35,384 nucleotides of DNA from a virus. Its lineage: Duplodnaviria > Heunggongvirae > Uroviricota > Caudoviricetes. Positions 13,807 to 35,384 of this stretch are shown here, piece by piece. Every line of letters begins with the position of its first letter. Within the stretch, counting starts at the first letter, position 1. The position numbers and the translations under genes are program-made. The notes below the pieces were generated by a model, which was given only the letters and a program-made list of their open reading frames with translations, was not told the origin of the DNA and ran no database searches. The stretch lies in the IMG/VR virus record IMGVR_UViG_2684622552_000007, positions 1 to 35,384 of that record; one strand, given 5' to 3'.

Positions 13807-13991
13807 ACGCCACAATTCAAACGATACCAGAGCTTCTTATCCAGACACGAGGCAATCAGACCGAAGTGGCAAGGATGCTTTCCTGCGCAAGAGGAACAGT
13901 GCTCAAGTACAACCGAGACAGCAAAGGCGAGCGTCATGTAATAGTTAACGGCGTCCTGATGGTCAAACAGGGCAAGAGGGGGAGACGATGA
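13803..13991 (+). CDS. ninH: NinH
   Basis: IPELLIQTRGNQTEVARMLSCARGTVLKYNRDSKGERHVIVNGVLMV resembles lambda NinH by recall. Confidence 0.65.
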   Translation: MNATIQTIPELLIQTRGNQTEVARMLSCARGTVLKYNRDSKGERHVIVNGVLMVKQGKRGRR

Positions 13992-14611
13992 GACTCGAAA
14001 GCGTAGCTAAATTTCATTCGCCAAAAAGCCCGATGATGAGCGACTCACCACGGGCCACGGCTTCTGACTCTCTTTCCGGTACTGATGTGATGGCTGCTAT
14101 GGGGATGGCGCAATCACAAGCCGGATTCGGTATGGCTGCATTCTGCGGTAAGCACGAACTCAGCCAGAACGACAAACAAAAGGCTATCAACTATCTGATG
14201 CAATTTGCACACAAGGTATCGGGGAAATACCGTGGTGTGGCAAAGCTCGAAGGAAATACTAAGGCAAAGGTACTGCAAGTGCTCGCAACATTCGCTTATG
14301 CTGATTATTGCCGTAGTGCCGCGACTCCGGGCGCAAGATGCAGAGATTGCCACGGTACAGGTCGGGCGGTTGATATTGCCAAAACAGAGCAGTGGGGGAG
14401 AGTTGTTGAGAAAGAATGCGGAAGATGCAAAGGTGTCGGCTATTCAAGAATGCCAGCAAGCGCCGCATATCGCGCTGTAACGATGCTAATCCCAAACCTT
14501 ACTCAACCTACCTGGTCACGCACTGTTAAGCCGCTGTATGACGCTCTGGTGGTGCAATGCCACAAAGAAGAGTCAATCGCAGACAACATTTTGAATGCGG
14601 TCACACGTTAG
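13988..14611 (+). CDS. Q: Late-gene antiterminator Q (lambda type, 207 aa)
   Basis: MRLESVAKFHSPKSPMMSDSPRATASDSLSGTDVMAAMG... essentially identical to lambda Q by recall; followed by the pR-prime/qut region. Confidence 0.9.
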   Translation: MRLESVAKFHSPKSPMMSDSPRATASDSLSGTDVMAAMGMAQSQAGFGMAAFCGKHELSQNDKQKAINYLMQFAHKVSGKYRGVAKLEGNTKAKVLQVLATFAYADYCRSAATPGARCRDCHGTGRAVDIAKTEQWGRVVEKECGRCKGVGYSRMPASAAYRAVTMLIPNLTQPTWSRTVKPLYDALVVQCHKEESIADNILNAVTR

Positions 14612-14653
14612 CAGCATGATTGCCACGGATGGCAACATATTAACGGCATGATA

Positions 14654-14682
14654 TTGACTTTTTGAATAAAGTTGGGTAAATT
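14654..14682 (+). promoter_or_regulatory. Late promoter pR-prime (with overlapping qut region)
   Basis: TTGACT (14654-14659), 17-bp spacer, TAAATT (14677-14682); flanking DNA matches lambda pR-prime by recall. Confidence 0.8.
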
Positions 14683-14689
14683 TGACCCA

Positions 14690-14882
14690 ACGATGGGTTA
14701 ATTCGCTCGTTGTGGTAGTGAGATAAAAAGAGGCGGCGCTTACTACCGATTCCGTCTAGTTGGTCACTTCGACGTATCGTCTGGAACTCCAACCATCGCA
14801 GGCTGAGAGGTCTGCAAAATGCAATCCCGAAACAGTTCGCAGGTAATAGTTAGAGCCTGCATAACGGTTTCGGGATTTTTTA
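14690..14882 (+). ncRNA. 6S late leader RNA (pR-prime to tR-prime transcript, about 193 nt)
   Basis: Starts at ACGATGGG about 8 nt downstream of the -10 and ends at the tR-prime terminator; matches the lambda 6S region by recall. Confidence 0.7.
14823..14882 (+). terminator. tR-prime intrinsic terminator
   Basis: AATCCCGAAAC ... GTTTCGGGATT long hairpin followed by TTTTTTAT. Confidence 0.8.
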
Positions 14883-15279
14883 TATCTGTGTAACAGGTAA
14901 GAGCATTCTCCCTTATGGGGCTTGGCTTAAATGCATTGAGTGCTCTTTCCGTTGTGCTGAATTAAGCGAACACCGGAAGCAGAACCGGATCACCAAATGC
15001 GTACAGGCGTCATCGCCGCCCAGCAACAGCACAACCCAAACTGAGCCGTAGCCACTGGCTATCCTGAACTCATCAGTGATAGTTACGCTGCGGCCTTCTA
15101 TACATGAACTTCGTGAAAGCGGGTGGCAAGAGGTTGCGCTAACAACCTCCTGCCGTTTTGCCCGTGCATATCGGTCACGAACAAATCTGATTACTAAACA
15201 CAGTAGCCTGGATTTGTTCTATCAGTAATCGACCTCATTCCTAATTAAATAGAGCAAATCCCCTTATTGGGGGTAAGAC

Positions 15280-15603
15280 ATGAAGATGCCAGAAAAACAT
15301 GACCTGTTAGCCGCCATTCTCGCGGCAAAGGAACAAGGCATCGGGGCAATCCTTGCGTTTGCAATGGCGTACCTTCGCGGCAGATATAATGGCGGTGCGT
15401 TTACAAAAACAGTAATCGACGCAACGATGTGCGCCATTATCGCCTGGTTCATTCGTGACCTTCTCGACTTCGCCGGACTAAGTAGCAACCTCGCTTATAT
15501 AACGAGCGTGTTTATCGGCTACATCGGTACTGACTCGATTGGTTCGCTTATCAAACGCTTCGCTGCTAAAAAAGCCGGAGTAGAAGATGGTGGAAATCAA
15601 TAA
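15280..15603 (+). CDS. S: Class I holin S (S107 antiholin / S105 holin dual-start motif MKM)
   Basis: [60 protein letters not shown]... matches lambda S by recall. Confidence 0.9.
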
Positions 15604-16063
15604 TCAACGTAAGGCGTTCCTCGATATGCTGGCGTGGTCAGAGGGAACTGATAACGGACGGCAGAAAACCAGAAATCATGGTTATGACGTCATTGTAGGC
15701 GGAGAGCTATTCACTGATTACTCAGATCACCCTCGCAAACTTGTCACGCTAAACCCCAAACTCAAATCAACAGCTGCAGGCCGTTACCAGCTTCTTTCCC
15801 GTTGGTGGGATGCCTACCGCAAGCAGCTTGGCCTGAAAGACTTCTCTCCGAAAAACCAGGACGCTGTGGCATTGCAGCAGATTAAAGAGCGTGGTGCTTT
15901 ACCGATGATTGATCGCGGTGATATCCGTCAGGCAATCGACCGTTGCAGCAATATCTGGGCTTCACTGCCGGGCGCTGGTTATGGTCAGTTCGAGCATAAG
16001 GCTGACAGCCTGATTGCAAAATTCAAAGAAGCGGGCGGAACGGTCAGAGAGATTGAGGTATGA
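15587..16063 (+). CDS. R: Endolysin R (lambda-type lytic transglycosylase)
   Basis: [52 protein letters not shown]... matches lambda R by recall. Confidence 0.9.
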
Positions 16064-16497
16064 GCAGGTTAACCGCGATTATCTCCGCTCTGATTATCTG
16101 CATCGTCGTCTGTCTGTCATGGGCTGTTAATGATTACCGTGATAACGCCATCGCCTACAAAGACCAGCGCGATAAAGCCACATCTATCATCTCTGATATG
16201 CAGAAGCGTCAACGTGATGTAGCTGAACTCGATGCCAGATATACAAAGGAACTTGCTGATGCTAACGCGACTATCGAAAGTCTCCGTGCTGATGTTTCTG
16301 CTGGTCGTAAGCGCCTGCAAGTCGCCGCCACCTGTGCAAAGTCAACGACCGGAGCCAGCAGCATGGGCGATGGAGAAATCCCAAGACTTACAGCAGATGC
16401 TGAACTCAATTATTACCGTCTCCGAAGTGGAATCGACAAGATAACCGCGCAGGTTAACTACCTGCAGGAATACATCAGGACGCAATGCCTGAAATAA
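16060..16497 (+). CDS. Rz: Rz i-spanin (inner-membrane spanin component)
   Basis: N-terminal TM segment [16 protein letters not shown] then coiled-coil periplasmic domain; position after R. Confidence 0.8.
16259..16444 (+). CDS. Rz1: Rz1 o-spanin lipoprotein embedded in the +1 frame of Rz
   Basis: [20 protein letters not shown] lipoprotein signal with lipobox Cys, then Pro-rich mature region [13 protein letters not shown]; AAGGA SD upstream of ATG 16259. Track ORF 16232-16444 is the same frame with an earlier start. Confidence 0.6.
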
Positions 16498-16528
16498 TTT
16501 TTTTGCAAATCACAAAGTCCATTTAATG

Positions 16529-16553
16529 AGCCTCGCGATGCGGGGCTTTTTTA
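16529..16553 (+). terminator. Intrinsic terminator after the lysis cassette
   Basis: AGCCTCGC-GAT-GCGGGGCT hairpin (one G-U pair) followed by TTTTTTAT. Confidence 0.55.
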
Positions 16554-16699
16554 TGTCCGCAGTAAACGCGCTTCACACGCGCGACTTATGAACACAGAGC
16601 CTTTCAGGATGACCCTTGAGGATGCCGGTTTGGTTATCGGTGCCTTTCTGTGGGCCGGAATCCTGTGTGACAAGGTTCATCACTAAAAGGTAATTACCG

Positions 16700-17242
16700 A
16701 TGAATTATCCAACTATCGTTGACGGCATTGATTTCAAAGAACTGGTTTTTATTACCAACAATGACCCTGTCACCGATTCATTTATGGTGGCGAAAGCATT
16801 TCGTAAGCGACATGACAACGTTGTGCGTGATGTAGAAAGAACTATCGCTGCTTGTCCTGAAGAGTTTGATACAAAACTCAATTTTGAGGTTTGCTATAAA
16901 AACAATGAGTTACAGAATGGTAAGCCACAAAAATTCTATCGGCTACGTAAGGATGGGTTGATGCTTTTGGTTATGTCCTACACCAAAAAAGAAGCAATGC
17001 GTATCAAAATTGCTTACATCAACGCATTCAACTGGATGTACGCCATGCTTCAGGTTGGTCATCGTCAATTTGAAGAAGAGAGAAATGCCGTAATGCTGGA
17101 GTACATGAAAGAGAAGGATGTTGCCAGCATGTCAGGTCGCCTGCTTAATCGCTGGGGAAAAATTAAGAAGCCTCAGCTAATGGCGAGAATTGAACGCCTT
17201 GAACAGCACGGGCAAACCGTAATCCCCGGACTCACTAATTAA
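16700..17242 (+). CDS. rha: Rha-family phage regulatory protein (180 aa)
   Basis: N-terminal block VAKAFRKRHDNVVRDVER matches the conserved KRHDNV(L/V)RD motif of Rha proteins (recall). Confidence 0.7.
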   Translation: MNYPTIVDGIDFKELVFITNNDPVTDSFMVAKAFRKRHDNVVRDVERTIAACPEEFDTKLNFEVCYKNNELQNGKPQKFYRLRKDGLMLLVMSYTKKEAMRIKIAYINAFNWMYAMLQVGHRQFEEERNAVMLEYMKEKDVASMSGRLLNRWGKIKKPQLMARIERLEQHGQTVIPGLTN

Positions 17243-31482: not shown

Positions 31483-31647
31483 TTTCGCAAACACCAGGAA
31501 CGTGCAAAAACCAAATATGTAGAACGCAATATTCAACAGATCTCTTTGCATAGACTCATCTCATAATTAACAGATCATAACTGACATTAGTGCAATGCCG
31601 GGCAAGTTGCATCTTGTTCCGCATTGCTACGTCCGGAGCAAATTAAA

Positions 31648-34065
31648 ATGACAGACATTACAGCTAATGTGATCGTATCAATGCCTTCGCAACTCTTCAC
31701 TATGGCTCGTTCTTTTAAAGCGGTTGCCAATGGCAAAATTTATATCGGTAAAATTGACACTGACCCGGTAAATCCTGAAAACCAGATTCAGGTTTATGTG
31801 GAGAACGAAGATGGCTCTCACGTTCCTGTTTCGCAACCAATCATCATTAACGCTGCTGGATATCCTGTATATAACGGGCAGATTGCCAAGTTCGTAACTG
31901 TGCAAGGCCATTCTATGGCTGTTTATGATGCGTACGGGGCACAGCAGTTCTATTATCCTAATGTACTGAAATACGATCCTGACCAGTTGCGCATTGAATT
32001 AGCTAATGGCAATGGTTCTCTTGTAAACACCCGATATGGAACACTTGATGAATATGTAGAGAAGACACCAAGTATTCTGGCTACAAAATATATGACAGAA
32101 GCTGAACTATTATCTGTTTTGAATCGTGACAGAAGTGTTTTTGTTGATCAGGCTCTTCAGTTAGCCGCTAATGAGGCAGCAGAAAAAGGTTGTGGTGTAT
32201 TCTGTCCTCCTGGTGATTATGTTGTCGATAAGAAAGTAAATCTATGGACTGGAATAACATCATTCTGGGGGGATGGTGGGGCAACGATTGTAAGAAGTCA
32301 GCGATCATATTTCATGTCCGGTTCGACTACGGATATTGATCCTACTCAGGACCGTTCAAATATGTTGCTGGTTGCCTCAGGGGCTAGCGGTAACATTTCT
32401 ATCCATGGTTTACGTTTTGATGGAAATGCAAGGAATATGGAGGTTGGTACTTCGGGTTCGGGAACATCAATCCCCGACCAGACACGATACATAGACGTAT
32501 GTCCGACAAACGCTGAACCCTATGACAACACCCCAGATGGAGTTAAAACACCAGTACCTAATGTTTCTTGGTCTGATCACAGGTATTCAAAAGGTGGTAT
32601 TAACATTTTTGACTGTGTTTTCTACGATTCACCGGGGTCATGTATCGGTGGCAACATGCGTAATATTCGCATCCATGGTAATTCAATGGACGGATGGTAT
32701 GATCACGCCGTGTACACTGCAGGAGCTACTTGGGATACAAACGGTCAGGGAGCTTTGGTTGAAGATATCGCTGTAATTGGTAACTCGATGAAGAATAGAG
32801 TGAATACCAGAGGTAATGGATGTATAAAAGGTCGCTGTGGATTTACACGTTTATCAATTATAGGTAACAATATTGACGTTTTAGATAACGCAATTGTTCT
32901 TGATATGCCAGGATCAAACGGAAATATTCCTTGGGGGCAGATTACTGTCTCTGGAAATAATATACAAACTCAAGGTGTTGGCATTCATATTGTACCTGGT
33001 ACATCAACAACTCCTTGGATAGATACAGGGTGGATGCGATCTCTTGTTGCTTCTGGTAACACCATCAGAGCTTATGATCGCATTATGTTAATTGGGACTC
33101 CTGGTGTTGTTATTGAGTCTGCTATTATATCACTTAATAATAACACTATGATAGCACCATTGTTCATGACCAATTACGCGCAAATGAGCAATTGTGAATT
33201 TAAGATAATTGGCGGGGTAATTGCCACTACTGGAACAACATTCATGTTTGCTCAAGATTCATCAAACATATCATCAAACAGTGGCATTGAATTCAATGGT
33301 GCAACACTTAGATCTGACTCAACATCATCAGTTGGTTTTGCCGCTGTTGGAAATTTTAATAGAATAAAAATATCTAATTGCAATATTTCAAATATCAACT
33401 TTGCAACAGGATCGGCAGCAACAGAGCTAAGAGTAATAGATAACAAAGTTTCTTATTACTCAGGTTTTTCCTTAATGCCATTCATTGATGTTATGACATC
33501 CACTAATGTCGGTTTAATGAATTTTATTTCATTAACAGGAAATGAGTTCACAAATGGACCATCTTTAATCAGGATTAAGTGCTCATCAAATTGCCTTGCT
33601 TCTTTTATAGAAAACAAGTTCTATAATTGTGGCACTCGAGTTGTTAAATTCCATCCTGCAGGATATACACCAAGGTCCCTTATTGTAAGAGGCAACATCC
33701 AGATAGGCGGTTTTTTGTTTGATCAATTACAAACGGGGGTATCAAAAGCAACAGGAACTAGTTATGCAGAATTTTCTAGAAACTATATATCATCATCTAC
33801 CCCTGGAACGGCAGGAAATGCAACAATGCTGATAGATGATGGAGCAACTCCATGGCTTTCACAGTATGAGAATATCAGAATTGCTGACAACATGTTTAAG
33901 GATGCAATTAACGTCATTCAGTGCTCTGGATCTGCAGTGTCAGGGATAGCGTCACAGAACAAATTGTGGTTCGGGGATAACTCGACAACAAATTCGACTG
34001 CTACATGCCAGTACCCAGCAGCAAATAAGGCGAATACAGACATGCCGCAAAACATTACATTGTAA
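31648..34065 (+). CDS. Tailspike protein: P22-type N-terminal head-binding domain plus divergent AT-rich beta-helix receptor-binding domain (805 aa)
   Basis: From ATG 31648: [59 protein letters not shown] matches the P22 gp9 head-binding domain (recall); downstream repeats of the IGN.I / SGN.I type indicate a parallel beta-helix. The track start at 31624 is a non-ATG extension. Confidence 0.85.
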
Positions 34066-34100
34066 ATATCTAGAGCGCATTATTAGACTTTAATTGTAAT

Positions 34101-34129
34101 AAGCAACCTCCTAACAGAGGAGGTTGCTT
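34101..34129. terminator. Bidirectional intrinsic terminator between the convergent tailspike and glycosyltransferase genes
   Basis: AAGCAACCTCC-loop-GGAGGTTGCTT perfect hairpin with A/T-rich flanks on both strands. Confidence 0.7.
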
Positions 34130-34133
34130 ATTA

Positions 34134-35384
34134 TTACTGCTGAGAAACTCTAATGTATAAATCTTCGTATTGTTTAGCTACAATAGAGAAATCCCATAAA
34201 GTGGTTGCTTTTCCCCGGCCCATTGCACCCATTTCAGCATTTAATGACTCATCATCTAATAACAATTTTATACCTGCAGCCATATCTTCATGGTCAAATG
34301 CCTTCGCAAGATATCCATCTTGCATATGACTTACAACATCTGTTAGCCCTGTGCAGTCAAATGTAACAACAGGTGTCCCACAAGATAGTGATTCTGAAGC
34401 TGTTTGTCCAAAAGCCTCTTGTCGAGATGGGACAACCATCACATCTGCTGAGTTATAGATCAGTGATAGTGTCACATCATCACTGACATGCCCAAGCCAT
34501 TTTACTTTAAATGGTATATCTGTTTTCTCTTTTGGCTCACTTTGACCAAAAACAACGCAAATTATTTCATCAGTTGATACTTGATGTGATAATGAATTTA
34601 TCGCTTTGATTAGCAAATCATATCCTTTTCTTTGATCTTTGGTTCCACCAATTGCCCCGAAAAGAATAATTTTCTTATCCGCTGGGATTCCAAGAATTGA
34701 ACGAGATAAATTTTTATCTATAGGCTTATATATAGATGTATCGATTGCATTTGGTATGATTGTTATATCGCTATGCCTGAACAGCTTGCTTCTTTTTGCG
34801 CAGTTAGCCAGCCATTTGCTAGGTGATACGATATGCATTCTAGTATTCCAGGCAATCCCCTTTCTCAAATATGCAATTTTGTCAGTATCAATCCCTGATT
34901 CACCTTGTGGTCTATTTTGTGATGTATATCCTACAGCCCATCTAGCATGGGTTTCATCAGGAGCATAATGCTCACTTCCGCAGAAAGGCCACATGTCGTG
35001 TAATGTCCAAATAATTGGTTTTCTAATTTTACCAATATCATTAAAAGATATTGTTTCTCCTGAAACCCAATGTAGGTTAACTACTGTGGCATCACTGTTG
35101 TTAATTTCTTTGCTCCACATCGAAGGGAGCCAATTTCCAGAATGAAAATTGAAGTTGTCTGTTTTTTGCAGCCTATCGATTAATTGTCCTAACCTTGGTC
35201 TTATAGCATTTATTAATTTTTCTGTTTTACTGGTGGCACCAATAACTGTGTGATCATCAGAATACTTGTTTCTGACACGCATTTTTGATTCCACTCCGGC
35301 TAAGCGCAAGGCACGGTGTAGCCTATAAGTTGCACGAGCCGCGCCACCTACAATATCATTCTGAGCAATAATCAAAGGCTTCAT
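34134..35384 (-). CDS. Family GT4 (group 1) glycosyltransferase, 416 aa; start codon is the last 3 nt of the window
   Basis: C-terminal GT-B motif PSRQEAFGQTASESLSCGTPVVTFD (E-x7-E type); AT-rich; no obvious TM segments. The N-terminus could extend beyond the window. Confidence 0.8.
   Translation of the reverse strand: MKPLIIAQNDIVGGAARATYRLHRALRLAGVESKMRVRNKYSDDHTVIGATSKTEKLINAIRPRLGQLIDRLQKTDNFNFHSGNWLPSMWSKEINNSDATVVNLHWVSGETISFNDIGKIRKPIIWTLHDMWPFCGSEHYAPDETHARWAVGYTSQNRPQGESGIDTDKIAYLRKGIAWNTRMHIVSPSKWLANCAKRSKLFRHSDITIIPNAIDTSIYKPIDKNLSRSILGIPADKKIILFGAIGGTKDQRKGYDLLIKAINSLSHQVSTDEIICVVFGQSEPKEKTDIPFKVKWLGHVSDDVTLSLIYNSADVMVVPSRQEAFGQTASESLSCGTPVVTFDCTGLTDVVSHMQDGYLAKAFDHEDMAAGIKLLLDDESLNAEMGAMGRGKATTLWDFSIVAKQYEDLYIRVSQQ

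Follow-up and report, generated by a model that had tools for sequence, protein, structure and literature searches.

Does the Rz gene of this prophage contain, out of frame, a second gene for the outer-membrane subunit of a spanin, and if so, to which kind of o-spanin does its product belong? The window analyzed here, which is the whole stretch of 35,384 nucleotides, matches NCBI contig JZWN02000029.1 (GCA_000968895.2) with a one-base offset, and the Rz of that contig is labelled Escherichia fergusonii by NCBI. The preliminary description had placed a lambda-type Rz1 at 16259–16444 of the window. We conclude with high confidence that this interval is a genuine Rz1 gene encoding the o-spanin subunit of a two-component spanin, the expression and function of which are expected by analogy with phage lambda. 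For Rz1 itself, the ORF, its frame, the signal sequence with its lipobox, family membership, conservation, the constraint imposed by dual coding and the cassette context were established directly.

The candidate gene lies at the end of a lysis region that comprises the following genes and control sites:

13988..14611: Q gene, lambda type (PHROG 127), upstream of the cassette
14654..14682, + strand: putative pR'-like late promoter, TTGACT-17-TAAATT, found by scan 43 nt after Q
15280..15603, + strand: holin S of the lambda family, 107 aa, starting MKM (PF05106, E=2.4e-30; PHROG 126)
15587..16063, + strand: endolysin R, 158 aa, 98% identical to lambda R (PHROG 90)
16060..16497, + strand: Rz i-spanin, 145 aa, with an N-terminal transmembrane segment and a periplasmic domain containing Cys92 and Cys143 (PF03245, E=1.6e-35; PHROG 13)
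16528..16558, + strand: intrinsic terminator-like hairpin with a T run, found by scan 3' of the cassette (9-bp stem, 6 GC pairs)

S and R are located directly upstream of Rz, with their ends overlapping, and the S-R-Rz/Rz1 lysis cassette is complete. Over its full length, the N-terminal hydrophobic segment included, Rz shares 55% identity with lambda Rz, and its residues C92 and C143 align with C99 and C152 of lambda Rz. The i-spanin partner that an o-spanin needs is thus present in the form of an Rz-family protein with an N-terminal transmembrane segment. The pR'-like site is presumed to be the source of the lysis transcript; its offset from the end of Q equals that of the mEpX2 promoter annotated as 'similar to lambda PR''. 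At the other end of the cassette, the HK75 record has an annotated terminator at the place corresponding to the 16528..16558 hairpin.

Several smaller features of these genes were recorded along the way. The Met-Lys-Met start of S (15280..15288) has the same dual-start arrangement as the lambda holin/antiholin gene, and the mEpX2 record carries the remark 'dual start motif' on the gene equivalent to S. Despite its 98% identity to lambda R, the endolysin gave no Pfam or NCBIfam match at E<=0.01, and its relatives are named inconsistently in RefSeq, as members of either glycoside hydrolase family 24 or family 104; none of the NCBIfam models matched Rz1, Rz or R. The Q-to-S spacer (14612..15279) is 668 nt long, compared with 433 nt in mEpX2 and 461 nt in a related E. 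coli prophage. In that E. coli prophage the spacer carries tRNA-Asn and tRNA-Thr, and ARAGORN and Rfam searches of the spacer in the window returned no tRNA or Rfam match.

Downstream of the cassette, the window encodes a Rha-family protein, the small and large terminase subunits, portal, coat and DNA-transfer proteins, and a tailspike. The structural region is ~95% identical to the P22/Sf6-like phages CUS-3, Kapi1 and Sf101. The prophage is a mosaic, in which a lambda/HK97-like late regulatory and lysis region is joined to P22/Sf6-like (CUS-3, Kapi1) virion genes. The Rha-family regulator, which has a C-terminal ORF11CD3 domain, is encoded at 16700..17242, between the lysis cassette and the terminase genes; at this place, lambda has bor on the opposite strand and related prophages have a KilA-N protein. 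The 813-aa tailspike (31624..35384 region) resembles many tailspike families over its first ~130 residues; for the remainder, the best match is a family whose name refers to colanic-acid degradation. Beyond the tailspike, on the minus strand, lies a 416-aa glycosyltransferase-like gene whose start codon consists of the final three bases of the window and which may be a moron that modifies surface polysaccharide.

Because the window comes from a bacterial contig, Rz1 could be intact in sequence but a relic of a defective prophage, never expressed. We consider this unlikely. Q, the pR'-like promoter, S, R, Rz, Rz1, the terminase, portal, coat and DNA-transfer genes and the tailspike are all intact, and the region is 94–97% identical to isolated phages. 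Moreover, the relic explanation concerns the activity of the prophage and not the identity of the gene.

Within Rz, the elements of the embedded gene are arranged as follows:

16246..16251, + strand: Shine-Dalgarno sequence AAGGAA of Rz1, read from the sequence, 7 nt from the ATG
16259..16444, + strand: Rz1 o-spanin gene, 61 codons and a stop, identified by Pfam, PHROG, identity to HK75, conservation in 78 homologues and dual-coding constraint
16259..16315, + strand: predicted signal peptide (residues 1–19), with R4/K7 in the n-region, an h-region and V-S-A ahead of the Cys (lipoprotein rule; helix 3–21 in the AlphaFold2 model)
16316..16318, + strand: Cys20 codon TGC, the predicted lipid-modified residue 1 of mature Rz1, also present in lambda
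16316..16441, + strand: mature Rz1, 42 aa, with a Pro-containing linker (21–33) followed by a probably helical part (34–60), from the sequence and the AlphaFold2 model

The coordinates given in the preliminary description are exact, and translation of the interval yields 61 aa. The gene starts 199 nt into Rz and is therefore in the +1 frame, wholly inside Rz as had been described; it spans Rz from 0.46 L to 0.88 L and ends 53 nt ahead of the Rz stop. Embedded o-spanins are defined by a different frame, a location wholly within the i-spanin ORF, a start at ~0.4–0.5 L and an end at ~0.9–1 L (PMC6139136). Rz1 has this architecture, with an end at 0.88 L that is marginally below 0.9. The gene-within-a-gene arrangement of lambda-type spanins claimed for the locus was likewise borne out, in that a PF06085 protein is encoded within a PF03245 Rz, 3' of a lambda-type holin and the lambda-like R.

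The lipoprotein signal and lipobox Cys attributed earlier to the embedded frame are readily recognized. The basic n-region (R4 and K7) is followed by an uncharged hydrophobic stretch at residues 8–19 (mean Kyte-Doolittle 2.76) and by the lipobox V-S-A-C20. The protein passes a PROSITE PS51257-style lipoprotein rule (Cys within residues 15–35), which is unspecific. We did not accept a lipobox by itself as proof of Rz1, given that 0–6 chance passes were obtained per shuffled window and that two unrelated ORFs of the window pass as well. According to the Lol +2 sorting rule, lipoproteins without Asp at position +2 are directed to the outer membrane. The N-terminus of mature Rz1 is C-K-S, with Lys and not Asp at +2, which implies, as read from the sequence, sorting to the outer membrane.

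Cys20 is the only Cys in mature Rz1. Pro accounts for 5 of its 42 residues (12%), all within 23–33. In a single-sequence AlphaFold model with a mean pLDDT of 70.8, residues 24–32 are disordered and residues 34–60 form a helix, with block-mean pLDDT values of ~85–88 over residues 41–60. The model is moderately confident and serves as a hint of helicity only; it suggests that the C-terminal half (34–60) is probably helical.

The position of the start codon could be questioned, since two upstream codons, ATG 16232 (70 aa) and TTG 16253 (63 aa), are both in frame, the corresponding proteins also pass the lipoprotein rule, with the Cys at position 29 or 22, and the automated ORF listing begins the Rz1 ORF at ATG 16232. 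To assess conservation, we collected 80 IMG/VR loci with Rz relatives together with HK75, mEpX2 and one E. coli prophage, which yielded 78 distinct 438-nt Rz sequences. As the Rz sequences of this set are at least 91% identical, the counts given here and below come from close relatives and do not represent independent events. The codon at 16232 is ACG in 61/78 homologues and ATG in 17/78, whereas ATG 16259 is kept in 77/78. The Shine-Dalgarno position 7 nt ahead of 16259 reads AAGGAG in 69/78 homologues and AAGGAA in 8/78, and a comparable Shine-Dalgarno sequence was not seen ahead of 16232. For every candidate start, the Pfam Rz1 match begins at Cys20, and in the curated HK75 and mEpX2 records Rz1 starts at the equivalent of 16259. 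We accepted the start at 16259 because the codon at 16232 is mostly ACG and lacks a comparable Shine-Dalgarno sequence, and because of the starts in the curated HK75 and mEpX2 records. Translation from an upstream codon thus appears very unlikely; in particular, ATG 16232, where the 70-aa precursor would begin, is probably not the real start. The mature lipoprotein is identical for starts at 16232, 16253 and 16259.

Family membership of the start-independent part of the protein is clear. The Pfam Rz1 model PF06085 matches from Cys20 on, over model positions 1–41 of 41, with a score of 70.5 bits (cut-off 27.9; E=9.9e-20), and PHROG 3198 ('Rz-like spanin') matches residues 1–61 with E=1.4e-28. 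Cys20 is unchanged in 78/78 distinct homologues, in all of which the frame is open to codon 58 or beyond. Two homologues have a stop at codon 59, which shows either that the last three residues of Rz1 are dispensable or that those two copies are decaying.

The overlap also leaves a signature in the variation of Rz. Inside the overlap, position 3 of the Rz codons is position 2 of the Rz1 codons. The diversity of Rz third positions is 0.128 on the 5' side of the overlap, 0.031 inside it and 0.126 on its 3' side. Variable third positions number 22 of 61 inside the overlap and 60 of 84 in both flanks together (Fisher p=3.8e-5, for sites that are not fully independent). A four-fold fall in third-position diversity that is confined to the overlap points to two coding frames and not to selection on Rz alone. 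It is therefore extremely improbable that the inner frame is open and conserved merely as a by-product of selection on Rz, with no Rz1 protein made: although the sampled homologues are all close relatives and lipobox-like patterns can occur by chance, selection on Rz alone leaves third positions free, whereas their diversity drops exactly in the overlap, and, in addition, Rz1 fits an independently derived model of its family, built on other phages (E=1e-19), is recognizably homologous to lambda Rz1 despite DNA that is only ~30–80% identical there, and keeps Cys20, the ATG and the Shine-Dalgarno sequence among the homologues.

Other candidates for the interval were considered and set aside. The minus-strand ORFs at 16409..16212, 16384..16274, 16485..16345 and 16320..16120 have no Pfam match at E<=0.1 and were treated as shadows of the coding strand. 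Searches of the whole window with Rfam at gathering thresholds and with ARAGORN found no RNA gene competing for the Rz1 interval.

We then compared Rz1 with o-spanins of known phages. An alignment with lambda Rz1, proposed in the preliminary description as a check, was obtained, with 22/54 residues identical (~41%; pairwise E=6e-9). The two proteins share the +1 frame in Rz, a 19-residue signal peptide, Cys20 and the same place in the S-R-Rz cassette, and the motifs AW.M and LN.II..SE are kept between them. They differ in the following features: lambda Cys29, the site of an intermolecular disulfide, is in a two-residue C-V stretch that aligns to a gap in the window Rz1, and the penta-proline fusion motif of lambda Rz1 (residues 32–36) corresponds to RPEPAA. 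Lambda Rz1 has 10 Pro, or 25% of the mature sequence (PMC5295617), against 5 in the window Rz1, and the 'Pro-rich mature domain' of the preliminary description is thus only moderately true. Lambda Rz1 has been described as unstructured (PMC6139136), in contrast to the probably helical C-terminal part predicted here by the model. Judged by lambda similarity, Cys29 and the penta-proline motif together, the protein falls outside a narrowly drawn 'Lambda' o-spanin group.

Its close relatives are found elsewhere. A census of spanins defines an 'HK97' family of embedded o-spanins that includes HK97, HK75, HK022, mEpX2, CUS-3, P22, Sf6 and Sf101 (Kongari et al. 2018, PMC6139136, Table 4). This family is separate from the 'Lambda' o-spanin family, although all of the corresponding i-spanins belong to the lambda i-spanin family (PMC6139136). 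The window Rz1 is identical to HK75 Rz1 at 60/61 positions, to mEpX2 Rz1 at 59/61 and to the Rz1 frames of HK97 and HK022 at 58/61. The GenBank records of HK75 and mEpX2 annotate the same 186-nt gene as Rz1, at the same 199-nt offset in Rz. Like the window Rz1, the o-spanins of the HK97 family have 61 aa, a 199-nt offset in a 145-aa Rz, the same lipobox and no periplasmic Cys, and only point differences separate it from these relatives, for example Ser41, which is Ala in most of them. The HK97 o-spanin has 47% predicted alpha-helical character, unlike lambda Rz1, and the helical C-terminal part of our model agrees with this reported prediction (PMC6139136). By its sequence, Rz1 belongs to the HK97 o-spanin group and not to the lambda group. 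The earlier lambda-type reading therefore holds for a lipoprotein Rz1 in a lambda-type cassette and is refined with respect to the o-spanin family.

At the DNA level, identity to lambda is 88–100% (mostly at least 97%) in a segment that begins upstream of S and extends past R into Rz for ~90 nt; from ~16150 on, it falls to 30–80%, with the junction located within 16094..16250, inside Rz. This drop near 16150 indicates a separate HK97-type mosaic module that consists of the distal half of Rz and the entire Rz1 gene.

Translation, lipid modification, sorting, complex formation and membrane fusion can be envisaged for Rz1 by analogy with lambda Rz/Rz1 (PMC5295617, PMC6139136). Late transcription from pR' under Q antitermination would cover S, R, Rz and Rz1. 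Inside the Rz message, the separate Shine-Dalgarno sequence of Rz1 would allow independent initiation at ATG 16259, in the +1 frame. After export of the 61-aa precursor, Cys20 would receive its lipid and signal peptidase II would remove the 19-residue signal peptide. Owing to the Lys rather than Asp at +2, Rz1 would then be delivered by the Lol system to the outer membrane, where it would reside in the inner leaflet. There, the C-terminal part of Rz1 would bind the periplasmic C-terminal end of the inner-membrane-anchored Rz, forming a complex that spans the periplasm. After removal of the peptidoglycan by holin and endolysin, the Rz/Rz1 complex would fuse or disrupt both membranes and thereby complete lysis.

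In lambda, function requires a homotypic disulfide, which can be formed through Rz C152 or Rz1 C29, either of which suffices (PMC5295617). More generally, the i- or the o-spanin of a two-component pair carries one or more periplasmic Cys residues through which homotypic intermolecular disulfides can form (PMC6139136, PMC5295617). In the present pair, such residues are provided by Rz (C92 and C143) and none by Rz1. As mature Rz1 has no Cys besides Cys20, the Rz cysteines would have to provide for covalent homodimerization of the complex, a role that would fall to C143, the equivalent of lambda C152. We speculate, with a low expectation of being correct, that HK97-type Rz1 proteins, including that of the window, may engage Rz and drive fusion by a different structural route than lambda Rz1, given their lack of a periplasmic Cys and a penta-proline motif and the probable helix in their C-terminal half. 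The sharp drop in identity to lambda near 16150 would in that case delimit a self-contained, exchangeable module of distal Rz and Rz1 that co-evolves.

The same task of disrupting the outer membrane is performed by P2 lysB/lysC, by T4 pseT.3/pseT.2 (overlapped/separated) and by the unimolecular T1 gp11 (PMC6139136). In these spanins, too, an outer-membrane lipoprotein works with, or is fused to, an inner-membrane anchor (PMC6139136). They have other gene architectures and no detectable sequence relationship to the o-spanin of the window, which is encoded wholly inside its i-spanin gene.

Both the embedding of Rz1 in Rz and the HK97 family of o-spanins have been published, and the finding is already known biology. 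Its practical value is in annotation, because the source assembly and RefSeq-style pipelines omit the gene, in agreement with the earlier remark that routine annotation often misses Rz1. The gene calls of the source assembly list S, R and Rz but no Rz1, and a collection of 15 billion proteins contains the exact Rz but not the exact 61-aa Rz1. Among the RefSeq E. coli matches listed, 15/15 show only 'lysis protein'. For the best 25 matches (24 annotated phage records), two spanin genes are annotated in 4 only, namely, the GenBank and RefSeq entries of HK75 and mEpX2. When Rz1 is omitted, the cassette appears to have no outer-membrane component; adding the CDS at 16259..16444 completes it.
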